A stretch of DNA of 64,000 nt. Origin: a virus. This document shows positions 15,373 to 43,911 of the stretch, in pieces. Position numbers and translations under genes: made by a program. Below the pieces are notes generated by a model, which was not told the origin of the DNA, did no database searches, and was given only the letters and a program-made list of their open reading frames with translations. The stretch's first letter is position 1, and every line of letters starts with the position of its first letter. The DNA lies in IMG/VR virus record IMGVR_UViG_3300034105_002043, positions 12,747 through 76,746 of that record; one strand, 5' to 3'.

Positions 15373-18300
15373 TTACTTTTTTAATTGAGCAAATGCTCTT
15401 TTTTTAGCATCGTTCCAACTTTCGCCGTCTTTACGAATTTCTTTAGCCAAAATATTTGCTTGTTTTAACATTTCGCTTCCGCTACGTTTTTTAGTTTCGC
15501 CACCCATTTCTTTTTTAGCAGGTTGCATTGCTTTTACTTTTCCTGCAACTTTGTCGCCAACCTCTTGGGCTTCTTCTTTTGAATAGTATTTACCATACTC
15601 TTCTTGATATTGGCTCTTTACAGGTTTTCCCTCGTACTGTTTTGCTACTTTCGCTGAAAGTTTGTCAAAGTTGGAAATTTTGCCACCTCTTCCAAAAGTT
15701 CCTGTTTCCATAAACTTTTTGAATTTGGCTAACCCTTTAACGTGTTGCTCCGAAACTACTTTTTCAGTCAATCTTTTTGGAGAAGAAACCTCTAAAGTAT
15801 AATTAGGGTCTTCGTAAGGCGTGTATTTAAAAATTTCGTAGCCTTTACTTCCTGTTGGTTCGGTTTTTCCACCTTGAGCAGAGGTAATTAATTTACCACT
15901 ATAAATTTTAATTGTAGATAATCTCCAATCGTAATCATTGAAATTATCTATATTAGTTTCTGCTTTCCAATTACCCCTCATATCTTTTCTGATATAAGTT
16001 TCTCCGACTTTAGTTTCTGATTTTCTTGAAGCAGTAGGCGTTGGTTCTGCACCAACAGGTTCAGCCCCTTTCTTAACCCAATATCCGTTTGCAGGTTTAA
16101 CTTTGCTTCCGTCTTTTAATTCAACCTCAACAACATCACGTTTTGGAATATAGTTTGCTTTTGAAGATATATCCCCACCTTTAGCAAGTACGTTAGCACC
16201 ATTTAAAACGTCAGCACCTTTATAGGTTACTTCTTTACCATTACGTTTTACTGTAACGGTTTTGATGTCTGCTTTTAAAATGTATTTTTTAAGATTTCCG
16301 CCTTTAGCAAATTCATTTTTTCCCCAATAACGATAAGTGTCTATCATTCTTCTCTGACCTTTTGGGGTTGTACTGATGTAAAATTCTATCTTTTGCAACT
16401 CCTCTTTTGGAATTTGAGTTTCTTTAACAATATTTATGTATTTATTATATTCCGTTTCATCAAAATCAGAATCTAAAACTTTTTGATACGCTTTTGCTAA
16501 TTTTAGACTATCTCTTTCAGACCTTTCTTTAAAATTAAGTTTTCCGCCTTTAGCGTAAACGTCATTCATAAAACCACCGTCAGCAAACAAAAACTTAACA
16601 TCTTTAATTAACTCATAAGTTGTTAAATCTTGATTGTTTTCAACTTTTCGTTTTAAATTAGAATAAAAGTTATCGGCAAATTCCACAGAAAGTTGTGGCG
16701 ACATTTTAAAATCTTTTGGTAATCCTTTTGCACCATATTTTCCAATTTCTCCCTCATATATAAAAACGTGTCTTCTGTTATTAAACCCACTACTAATACC
16801 TATTGTAAATTTTCCTACTTGTTCTTCTTTGAAAATTATTTCTTTACCAAAAATGCCATCAAAAGTTCTAACTTGTCCGCCGTCAGCGTAAACATCATTC
16901 ATAAAACCCCCGTCAGCATAATTGTTTTCGGCTTTTACTAATTCGTTTAATTCATCGAATTCAAATGAATATTTATCTCCCTCTTCATCTCTTGCTTCAC
17001 AAGCACCATCATTATATACTTTTATAACTGTGTAAACAATACTTCCGTTGTTTTTATATCTAAAACTTTCGCCAACTCTAAATCTTGTCAAAGGTTTTTC
17101 AACGCTCCCACCGTCAGCAAATTTTTGTACGATTTGAAATTCAATACTTGAAACTCTTGCAACAGAAAGAGCAAGGTGTCCTCTTAAAACATCTTTAAAT
17201 GTTTGATTGTAGTTTAAATAGAAGAATTGAGAGTTTAAAAATTTCTCAACACCTGCTTGATTTTTATTTACTAATTTATTTACAAGCATTTCTGTTTCCT
17301 GTTCGTCTAATTCAATTTTAGAAAAACTATTTGGAACTAATTTTTCAACTTGTAAATTACCTAATGAAAAAGCAATTCCCGAATTAGACCAACCTCCGTA
17401 AAGACTTTCATAAGGAACTAACACACAACCTTTAAATTGGTCTTTTAATTTAATTCCAAAAACATAAGTTTCTTTATTTCCGTATGAATCTTGCAATCTT
17501 ACAATGTATTTTGCTATTGCTTTACCATTCATAACTTGTTTGAATCTATCAACTTCGTATTTGTCAAGAAAACCACCGTCAGCATAATTACCATTAATAT
17601 TAATGTTTTCAACAAAAGACAATAAAGGCGATGTTACTACGAAATCATCTCCATCGTAGTCAGATAATGCCTCAACAATAGATTCTTTATCAGAAACTTT
17701 TAAACCTCTTATGAAACCTAATAAATCATCAGTTACAAAGAATTGTTGGTCTTCTTCAAATTCATTATCGTCAGAATCGTAATTTTCTAACGCTTTCAAT
17801 ATTTGTTCTTTTTCACTTAAACTCCCACCATCAGCATATCCTTTTCTTGCAGGGGCATCAAATTTTATTTGCATTTTGCCATCAGTACCTCTTGAAAAAG
17901 TATCGAACTCTTTGTCAGTTATAAAATACTCTTTTCCGTCAACTTTAATTCTTGTTCCACCTGTACCTGCTAATTTATAAAAATCATCAGCCACTTTTCC
18001 CATACCTAATCCACGATAAGTAATTCTACGTTGTTCAAGCCTTTCTTTAAAATTTGGTATGTCTTTAACAGAGGTAACAACCATTCCGCCTTTAGCGTAA
18101 ACATCATTCATAAAACCTCCGTCAGCATATTGATTTATATTTTCAACGATTATTTGTTCTTTGTAATCTACATTTCCTTGCCATCTTGGTCTGCCATAAG
18201 ACCTAACTATTTTGAAAGTAGTTCCATCTTTTAAATCAACTGAATATATATCTTCATAATAAGGGTAACTATCGTTATAAGGGTAATTTTTTCCTTTTTC

Positions 18301-42963: not shown

Positions 42964-43911
42964 TTATTTACCTAAAAACATTCTTAAATAGTCAGGCACT
43001 CCGCTTTCAGTAGCACCGCCCTGTTCCATTTTGCTTTGTTTTTCTAACTCTGCAATAGGAACTCCTAATTTTGAGTAAGCACGGCGTTTAGGCAATCTCA
43101 TTCCTCCACGCTCAATTACTTTGTAATCTCCGCCTGAACCGTCAACAACCATATATCCGTCTGCTTTGTCTTTTAATTCGTTAAGTGCGCTTTTGCCCCT
43201 TGTAAAGAAATCATCTATTACCGCCAAAGGGACAAAACGACCACTCTTCTTGTACCTTTCTAAAGCACGTTTTTTAATAACTTCCTCGTCAACTTTGTCT
43301 ATGTAAACAATGAAAACTTTATACCCTAATTTTTTTAAAAGTGCTATAAGCGGATAATAACTCTTGGTGCTATTCATAGTTCCGTCATAAATAACATCGT
43401 ATTTACAAGGAATACCAATAGTTCTATCACTCAAAAGCGTATTAACAATATCTTTGGTTTCTTGATGTGTTTGAGTTGCGTTCCAACCTTTGTATTCAGG
43501 AAGTTTTGCTCTAATCTCGTCTGCATCAACTTTTAAAATTTCTTCTTTAAGTAAGTAAGGAGCGTATTTTCTCAAGAATGTACTTTTACCACTTGCAGGA
43601 GAACCGCCCATAAGGATTGCGATTGGTTCGTCATTTTGAATACAAATCAAGTCTGCCTTGAATGAATCCATTATTTTTGCGTGAAGTTTTTTTCTTTCAG
43701 GGTAGTAATCTCCTGTTGTTTTGCTTGTATTTAAGTCTTTTGTTTGAGGTAGGTTTTCCGCATATTCGGTAAGAACTTCAATTGCTCTTTCATCTATACG
43801 TCTTTCTCCGTCATTATCGTAGATTTCTTTTCTAATTTTTAAAGGGATTGACTTATCAACCTTTCCGCCCTCTGCGTAGTAATCCGAATAGTCTATATGA
43901 TTGTGTTTCAT
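42964..43911 (-). CDS. zeta toxin/PezT-like P-loop kinase flanked by YAEGG and MEQGG
   Basis: ILMGGSPASGKST, VDADEI...LPEY, VIYDGT, RA.ER....GRFVP. Confidence 0.85.
   Translation of the reverse strand: MKHNHIDYSDYYAEGGKVDKSIPLKIRKEIYDNDGERRIDERAIEVLTEYAENLPQTKDLNTSKTTGDYYPERKKLHAKIMDSFKADLICIQNDEPIAILMGGSPASGKSTFLRKYAPYLLKEEILKVDADEIRAKLPEYKGWNATQTHQETKDIVNTLLSDRTIGIPCKYDVIYDGTMNSTKSYYPLIALLKKLGYKVFIVYIDKVDEEVIKKRALERYKKSGRFVPLAVIDDFFTRGKSALNELKDKADGYMVVDGSGGDYKVIERGGMRLPKRRAYSKLGVPIAELEKQSKMEQGGATESGVPDYLRMFLGK

Follow-up and report, generated by a model that had tools for sequence, protein, structure and literature searches.

What does a short peptide ending in Gly-Gly do when it recurs dozens of times within a handful of very large viral proteins? 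This question is raised by a window of 64,000 nucleotides, bases 12747-76746 of the 76,746-bp IMG/VR record IMGVR_UViG_3300034105_002043 (G000), which is classed as linear and has a CheckV completeness estimate of 100%. The virus is uncultured, and its host probably belongs to the Bacteroidota, an assignment that draws partly on the low G+C content (about 32%). All genes of at least 150 aa that we used lie on the minus strand. Five of them, encoding polyproteins A to D and protein E (Table 1), carry the motif [FYML]xxGG, which we call the junction. From sequence comparison and structural models, the best single explanation, with a probability of about 0.5, is that the junction is a protease recognition site at which the polyproteins would be cut into modules.

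To quantify the motif, we counted [FYML]xxGG by regular expression and compared the counts with 2000 within-protein shuffles. The motif occurred 20, 29, 11, 5 and 2 times in A, B, C, D and E, respectively (67 in total), close to the hand count of about 65 (20, 28, 10, 5 and 2) in an earlier note made from this DNA. The corresponding shuffle means were 2.7, 3.2, 2.1, 0.55 and 0.34, and the observed counts of A-D were never reached. The two copies in E lay inside the shuffle range (maximum 3), so the enrichment rests on A-D. Motif density was 8.98 per 1000 aa in A-E versus 1.51 in the other 96 open reading frames (ORFs), and the core form [FY][AE][DKN]GG was found 36 times in the 7,464 residues of A-E versus 0 times in the remaining 16,544 residues of the genome. 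The observed enrichment over the rest of the proteome is thus confirmed and highly significant. The information profile, built from 60 sites in this genome and 62 in its relative G001 (a viral contig of 54 kb, 77% complete), defined a seven-residue motif, [FYM]-[AE]-[DKN]-G-G-x-[VILMTF], with 3.1 bits at P5, 2.2-2.5 bits at P4, 3.7 bits each at P2 and P1, and about 1.5 bits at P2' across the two genomes. The segments between motifs, described earlier as unrelated modules sized like small stand-alone proteins, were indeed mostly without mutual similarity, and the enrichment is therefore not the echo of one duplicated domain.

To place the motif relative to recognisable domains, we used Pfam domain calls. 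In A, DUF2958 at residues 26-99 is followed by a motif at 108; in C, DUF5661 at 437-491 is flanked by motifs at 424 and 494, and a weak GNAT match at 352-418 (E 0.02) lies inside the segment bounded by the motifs at 254 and 424. In D, two ART-PolyVal stretches (PF18760, E 1.3e-33) are followed by motifs at 203 and 443, respectively, within the layout ART1-FEKGG-ART2-YAKGG-CysHis-YEKGG-moduleX-YNNGG-Zn ribbon-YSRGG-tail. In E, the Zeta toxin domain at 90-251 lies between motifs at 12 and 295. Across the Pfam domains DUF2958, DUF5661, both ART-PolyVal and Zeta toxin, the motif was located 3-12 residues outside the domain. The earlier placement of the motif at the borders of recognisable domains accordingly held for these families and for the weak GNAT segment, whereas the ParB-like domain called in that note was not reproduced by Pfam.

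We then considered the whole of D as an AlphaFold model built from a 36-row alignment (mean pLDDT 72, pTM 0.42); the evidence for A and B is comparative. The model showed five separate domains, and its low pTM fits domains without a fixed mutual arrangement. Stretches with pLDDT <50 include residues 192-206, 444-451, 561-570, 696-709 and 735-769, and all five motifs of D (203, 443, 560, 698 and 749) fall in such stretches, with adjoining domain cores at 80-95. Because just 20% of the residues of D have pLDDT <50, this placement of five motifs out of five is unlikely by chance. No motif of D was thus found inside a folded domain of the model; all five lie between domains, in low-confidence linkers. 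A module, in these terms, is a small domain, about 50-250 aa long, that stands by itself and ends in a seven-residue junction peptide.

The linker location also suits proteins that are never cut. They would stay full length, as beads on a string, and the junction would serve as a flexible joint or as a handle for loading or threading out. Its viral partner could be the AAA+ ATPase whose gene lies between B and C, or a site for docking on the capsid or a membrane, in line with the docking tag that the earlier note gave as its alternative. Modules of 50-250 aa could pass a narrow conduit singly, and a conserved gene cluster with the AAA+ ATPase does lie inside the polyprotein block. On the other hand, a plain linker seldom keeps five to seven conserved positions across lineages as divergent as these, whose zincins (see below) share 45-50% identity. 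We regard the uncut arrangement, the main rival to cutting, as possible but rather unlikely, and further evidence on both sides is given below.

To examine how modules are distributed among related viruses, we compared the polyproteins with the syntenic ones of G001, which carry 33, 18 and 10 motifs. Pieces cut at the motif matched end to end between the two genomes (for example 112/112, 96/96 and 155/155 residues) at 75-99% identity; the matching pieces stood in a different order in G001, and many pieces were found in one genome alone. When the A and B genes were aligned with G001 by blastn, 36 of the 48 block ends lay ≤5 residues from a motif, compared with 18% of random positions, and most block ends away from a motif fell at the end of a gene or in an internal repeat. 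When D was searched with phmmer against 1.84 billion representative proteins, 10,694 matches were returned at E <= 1e-3, and the best 150 of these 10,694 were examined. In this set, match boundaries again coincided with the motif-bounded modules of D, module order was freely permuted (for example X, Cys-His, Zn ribbon, tail in P0023), and 146 of the 150 homologues carried at least two motifs, with a total of 1047 versus 166 after shuffling. As a separate observation, module X was the commonest cassette among these best 150 of 10,694 homologues; further matches of this module were to Salinibacter phage hypothetical proteins and, in Roseobacter phages, to regions with a major capsid protein annotation.

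At the nucleotide level, the double junction YADGG-FMNDV-YAKGG is present in four copies in A and B with 82-93% nucleotide identity and 83% third-position identity, and codon choice at the motif is skewed to GAC and GGC-GGA. The high identity and the codon skew indicate that the junctions share recent DNA ancestry. The same two features, together with homology blocks that break at the motif and permuted module order among hundreds of homologues, would also be produced by a recombination joint acting as DNA, that is, in-frame microhomology for cassette swaps whose encoded peptide is merely tolerated, neither cut nor bound. We consider this improbable. Synonymous sites do differ between copies, with each of the four Gly codons, and the two codons each of Tyr and Phe, still in use, and conservation is at the amino-acid level, including P2' (V/I/L/M/T/F). 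Homologous recombination would have little to work on in a degenerate core of 15 nt, the same breakpoints would arise if selection favoured in-frame swaps in linkers, and terminal motifs and tails are left unexplained. Selection on the junction is clearly at the peptide level.

Gene boundaries were found to be interchangeable with junctions. ART1 and ART2 of D meet at FEKGG|LLAPNGK, while the C gene ends FEKGG-KVN-stop and the D gene then starts MSNK-LLAPNGK. In G001, the first ART module is its own 181-aa gene ending FEEGG-ISQIGTPDYLRMFLGK-stop, and the remainder is a 418-aa gene. Homologues of module X start with M-KK-, M-N- or M-S-RTIAQTPAPK, and D has YEKGG-RTIAQTPAPK at the same point. 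Similarly, stand-alone Cys-His homologues (120-126 aa) end in ...WDIxTxx, where D goes on with YEKGG. At least one piece, the Cys-His module, therefore matches a stand-alone protein, and the ends of this 120-126-aa protein coincide with motif borders. For the modules of A, the short homologues do not point to stand-alone genes, being mostly fragments of 1-3-kb contigs or internal start calls. The interchangeability of gene boundaries with junctions is the strongest indirect argument for modules acting as separate proteins, and counts against proteins that stay in one piece. As read from these comparisons, modules are swapped, shuffled in order, gained and lost at the junction, and gene fission and fusion take place there too. 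There is good support for the motif as both a defined peptide that closes each module within a flexible linker and an in-frame exchange point.

The junction also sets off the C-terminal tails. Both D and E end with GG and 16 further residues closing with PDYL[KR]MFL, as do three genes of G001, and GG followed by a PDYLKMFL-type tail of 16-19 residues was found in at least 17 of the 150 best D homologues. The other endings after the final GG, among the best 150 of 10,694, included an amphipathic ...KLAKMVYFAENxL class and a basic LMKRRSRKRNQ class; in 9 of the 150, GG plus 0-3 residues formed the C-terminal end. Such a common tail, demarcated by the junction, has the look of an address peptide, which by analogy could be cleavable, as is the capsid-targeting sequence of T4, or tethered, as are encapsulin loading peptides. 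If the proteins stay uncut, PDYLKMFL would mediate docking from the end of a flexible tether, in the manner of the encapsulin cargo-loading peptides; however, some motifs are retained within 0-3 residues of the C-terminus, which leaves nothing to tether.

A further pair of motifs was found in a 233-aa beta-rich capsid-candidate protein (1314-2015, minus strand), which had no family, PDB or Atlas match. Its 48-aa acidic leader, which also contains FSNADG, ends in the tandem FFRADGG-MSMGG|DIQTS directly before the beta-rich body, and is 99% identical in G001. Tandem motifs at the leader-body boundary of a capsid-like protein are difficult to reconcile with a plain flexible joint. If the leader is removed at maturation, the same code would be read in particle assembly, which would tie the polyproteins to the virion.

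To identify candidate cutters, we searched for proteases of known Gly-Gly specificity. Processing by an adenain/Ulp1-type protease, the mechanism proposed in the earlier note, was not supported: a six-frame search of the 76.7-kb record with the Pfam models for adenain and Ulp1 (C48), PF00770 and PF02902, gave no match at E up to 10, although a divergent clan CE member may still be encoded. The C39 family (PF03412) likewise had no match in six frames of the genome. The failure to detect any protease from the families known to be Gly-Gly-specific is a point in favour of uncut proteins. The same note had rightly set the motif apart from the adenain consensus. Adenain, which cuts adenovirus precursors, recognises (M/I/L)-X-G-G|X or (M/I/L)-X-G-X|G, and the junction has [FYM] at P5 (F or Y at 54 of 60 sites) and Ala or Glu at P4. 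Spontaneous Asn/Asp-Gly chemistry as the cutting mechanism was set aside, with Lys occupying that position at 14 of the 60 sites.

Another possible cutter is the Cys-His module of D, acting in cis or in trans like the proteases embedded in other viral polyproteins. Motifs stand on both of its flanks, and its model (pLDDT 77) places GDCY at the start of helix 5-16, with the Cys at the helix N-terminus, and YGHA in strand 45-51, with the His on the strand. H47, D52 and D58 were invariant in 14 sequences, and the Cys was present in every sequence covering its position. The top 50 structural neighbours were mostly papain-like, NlpC/P60, C39, glutaminase or effector-deamidase proteins, with few other folds; the papain-like or transglutaminase-like neighbours included the double-glycine C39 peptidases ComA and PCAT1. 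However, even the best fold matches were weak (Foldseek E 0.39, to AvrPphB; VIA-align Z 4.8, where confidence needs Z of about 8), the module scored no better against ComA and PCAT1 (Z 3.0-3.9) than against NlpC/P60, and glutaminases and deamidases scored like C39, so that the model supports the papain-like general fold alone. No PDB sequence match exceeded chance, and a sub-threshold Pfam match to ATP-grasp_3 was disregarded. Moreover, the module was not found in the 54-kb, 77%-complete record of G001, although G001 keeps more than 60 motifs, which makes it unlikely to be the processing enzyme. On other contigs it behaves like a mobile cassette and like a stand-alone gene. By its distribution, the Cys-His module is probably an effector rather than a cutter. 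A host Gly-Gly-specific protease acting after delivery would be the remaining cutter of this kind, and nothing was found in its favour; we consider both very unlikely.

The only HExxH motif in the genome lies in a 261-aa zincin candidate (Table 1), and none was found in A-E. Its counterpart in G001 shares 92% identity, and 954 clusters of homologues, almost uniform in length, were found on contigs of up to 135 kb. H188, E189, H192, E202, E204 and D206 were invariant in 34 aligned homologues (58-92% identity). To assess co-occurrence, we searched the coding strand of 50 zincin-encoding viral records for the motif in a strict DNA form, with the reversed pattern as control. The strict motif was present in 41 of the 50 records, always on one strand, and in all 16 of those at least 90% complete (1-37 copies), compared with 0-1 occurrences of the reversed pattern. 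The reverse test, from viral contigs bearing module X to the zincin, covered 17 loci, mostly on short contigs. Neither the motif nor the zincin was found in four outgroup phages with homologous ART-PolyVal, namely Bacteroides phage BF1-TP2 and the crassviruses cr130_1, cr85_1 and cr271_1. A motif general to polyvalent or crassvirus cargo was accordingly rejected for the sampled BF1-TP2 (gp68) and three crassviruses. In one of these, crAssphage cr130_1 (NC_055901.1, L088), giant genes contain 26-31 in-frame stops under table 11, which fits stop-codon recoding and has no bearing on the finding. The co-occurrence of zincin and motif across records is suggestive, and the conserved zincin is, as a prediction, the best candidate cutter.

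If the junction is a cutting site, the proposed sequence of events is as follows. A-E would be modular polyvalent effector polyproteins, and a virus-encoded protease would recognise the junction and cut them into modules. The same protease would also remove the short C-terminal address tails (GG-x6-10-PDYL[KR]MFLxx). Cutting would most likely take place during or after loading into the particle; the 261-aa HEFSH zincin, encoded in the structural gene block, would be the cutter, and the papain-like Cys-His module would be one of the released effectors. A broader version of this proposal, which we put forward tentatively and at less than even odds, is that a widespread lineage without a recognisable tailed-phage capsid or terminase, some members having inverted terminal repeats, runs a polyprotein strategy like that of eukaryotic viruses. 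Its zincin would read [FY]-A-x-G-G-x-hydrophobic, mature the capsid leader, strip the tails and cut about 65 sites, freeing dozens of effectors, and the code would double as a recombination joint.

Several points weigh against cutting by the zincin. The co-occurrence is confounded by shared ancestry, the records belonging to one virus lineage, and distant zincin-bearing members carry just 1-6 strict motifs. Zincins usually select a hydrophobic P1', not Gly-Gly. The candidate itself matched no significant family (best Pfam match SprT-like, E 0.19; NCBIfam none), and an Atlas lead to DUF4344 scored 0.84, below the trust level. Cutting at two motifs that enclose as few as 10 residues would release tiny products for which no use is obvious. 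A peptide conserved as a flexible hinge or for docking would leave identical module borders, the same placement in linkers and the same pattern of recombination. The packaging of A-E is likewise a proposal only; no capsid, portal or terminase family gave a PHROGs, Pfam or NCBIfam match among the ORFs tested. In the crAss001 atlas (PMC10172136), which does not mention cleavage, a protease or processing, virion cargo is reported at full predicted mass, which favours proteins that stay whole.

Other searches bearing on the type of virion were also negative. Pfam Phage_capsid, Terminase_6N and protein-primed polymerase B had no match in G000, an HK97-type capsid and a prohead protease were not detected, and PDB and Atlas searches with a small ATPase (271 aa) gave nothing usable. 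Four zincin-bearing relatives of 69-84 kb (G008, G021, G026 and G027; loci L014, L030, L039 and L040) are classed by IMG/VR as having inverted terminal repeats, which hints at protein-primed replication of a linear genome.

Comparison with known systems placed A-E closest in kind to polyvalent proteins, for which delivery with the invading DNA and processing by a zincin-like peptidase have been predicted (Iyer, Burroughs, Anand, de Souza and Aravind 2017; PMC5512222). The assignment to polyvalent anti-host proteins made in the earlier note agrees with the DUF2958, DUF5661, two ART-PolyVal and Zeta_toxin domains and with the mutually unrelated segments. Like polyvalent proteins, those described here are giant, multidomain, borne on a mobile element and composed of unrelated anti-host domains, ART-PolyVal and Zeta-toxin-like domains among them. 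They differ in that a defined peptide of seven residues closes each module and doubles as a recombination joint, and in that the zincin is a separate conserved gene, whereas an MPTase domain inside the polyprotein is frequent there, although not obligatory. The words "glycine", "linker" and "GG motif" do not occur in PMC5512222, and no description of the motif was found in the literature searched (phage polyprotein, Gly-Gly, polyvalent cleavage).

The polyproteins pp220 and pp62 of African swine fever virus (ASFV) are cut at Gly-Gly-X by the SUMO-protease-like pS273R (PMC10308890). As in ASFV and adenovirus, a large DNA virus here encodes polyproteins with a signal ending in Gly-Gly and a hydrophobic preference just downstream. 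In contrast, no clan CE protease was detected here, the junction combines an aromatic P5 with Ala at P4 where those sites have an aliphatic P4, sites number dozens per protein versus 2-5, and the putative products are effectors rather than core-shell proteins. The double-glycine leaders of C39 substrates (PCAT/ComA) share the Gly-Gly signal with upstream hydrophobic positions, and the Cys-His module has weak fold similarity to their peptidases; unlike those substrates, which have one N-terminal leader of 15-30 aa, the motif here is internal and repeated 2-29 times per protein. Among phages, head proteases cut at Glu-ending sites, as in T4, where gp21 acts on the capsid targeting sequence and at L/I-x-E, and in phiKZ-like phages (S/A/G-x-E). 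This would be the nearest functional analogy among phages, since the concept is similar: a short address peptide for loading, trimming by a virion protease at a short consensus, and ejection into the host. The consensus is different, the protease class is other or undefined, and the C-terminal address tail and many internal sites would make A-E true polyproteins.

Should the junction prove to be a cutting code, at least 60 individual small proteins, the majority with an unknown fold, would come from a handful of genes, and annotators could read from the junction the exact start and end of each protein. It would further offer a ready catalogue of candidate anti-defence effectors, with more than 10,000 representative homologues carrying such modules, and an unusually explicit polyprotein system for a bacterial DNA virus. 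Biotechnology would gain a defined pair of protease and site, and the rapid exchange of cassettes in polyvalent proteins would have a mechanistic explanation. Should it never be cut, the junction still serves in practice as a marker for dividing these giant proteins into domains.

Table 1. Features of the polyprotein locus and of related genes. Positions are those of the window unless marked as genome positions.
Feature	Position	Strand	Description
Polyprotein A	15373-20568	-	1731 aa; ~21 modules, 20 junction motifs, N-terminal DUF2958 module
Polyprotein B	20581-27687	-	2368 aa; 29 junction motifs; module lengths 10-226 aa; no Pfam match
Polyprotein C	33801-40646	-	2281 aa; 11 motifs, mostly in first 900 residues
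Polyprotein D	40650-42959	-	769 aa
Protein E	42964-43911	-	315 aa; short leader, YAEGG, Zeta-toxin-like kinase, MEQGG, tail
Cys-His-Asp module (D residues 448-564)	41268-41618	-	papain-like fold (predicted); accessory cassette
Module X (D residues 565-668)	40956-41267	-	AKAVVRRGMGAYS...RVAWGLARLNAFTYK
D C-terminal tail, after last GG	40653-40700	-	KTQTTNPDYLKMFLDL
E C-terminal tail, after last GG	42967-43014	-	ATESGVPDYLRMFLGK
Double junction YADGG-FMNDV-YAKGG (A residues 814-828)	18085-18129	-	45 nt; one example of four copies
Tandem GG motifs FFRADGG-MSMGG ending leader of 233-aa protein	1872-1907	-	within gene 1314-2015
Four motif-free conserved genes between B and C	27703-33793	-	
Zincin candidate	genome 7734-8519 (L001:7734-8519), 4.2 kb before window	-	261 aa; HEFSH...ESEAD; soluble; among membrane and structural genes
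Junction sequence for two-module reporter			NINQYADGGFMNDVYAKGGMV

Within the block, C has long motif-free stretches (898-2015). The four genes between B and C encode proteins of 370 aa, 529 aa (weak DUF7192), 470 aa (an AAA+ ATPase, AAA_5/MoxR-like) and 559 aa (Gly-rich, 18% glycine); their order is the same in the syntenic region of G001, and they may form a loading or chaperone machine for the polyproteins. Intergenic gaps in the A-E block are 3-15 nt, with a sole exception of 293 nt, and co-transcription of the block is plausible from this spacing. Beyond the block, positions 44852-62515 (minus strand) contain several glycosyltransferase, DNA methyltransferase and 2OG-Fe(II) oxygenase-like genes, which may serve DNA or surface modification. 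In addition, a short conserved basic helix motif is common to the C-terminus of A (in 15373-15678, ...ILAKEIRKDGESWNDAKKRAFAQLKK) and to residues 101-128 of B (about 27300-27390, ...VAKEIQKAGESWKDAMERAKVV), and the basic ending of A is kept in many homologues.

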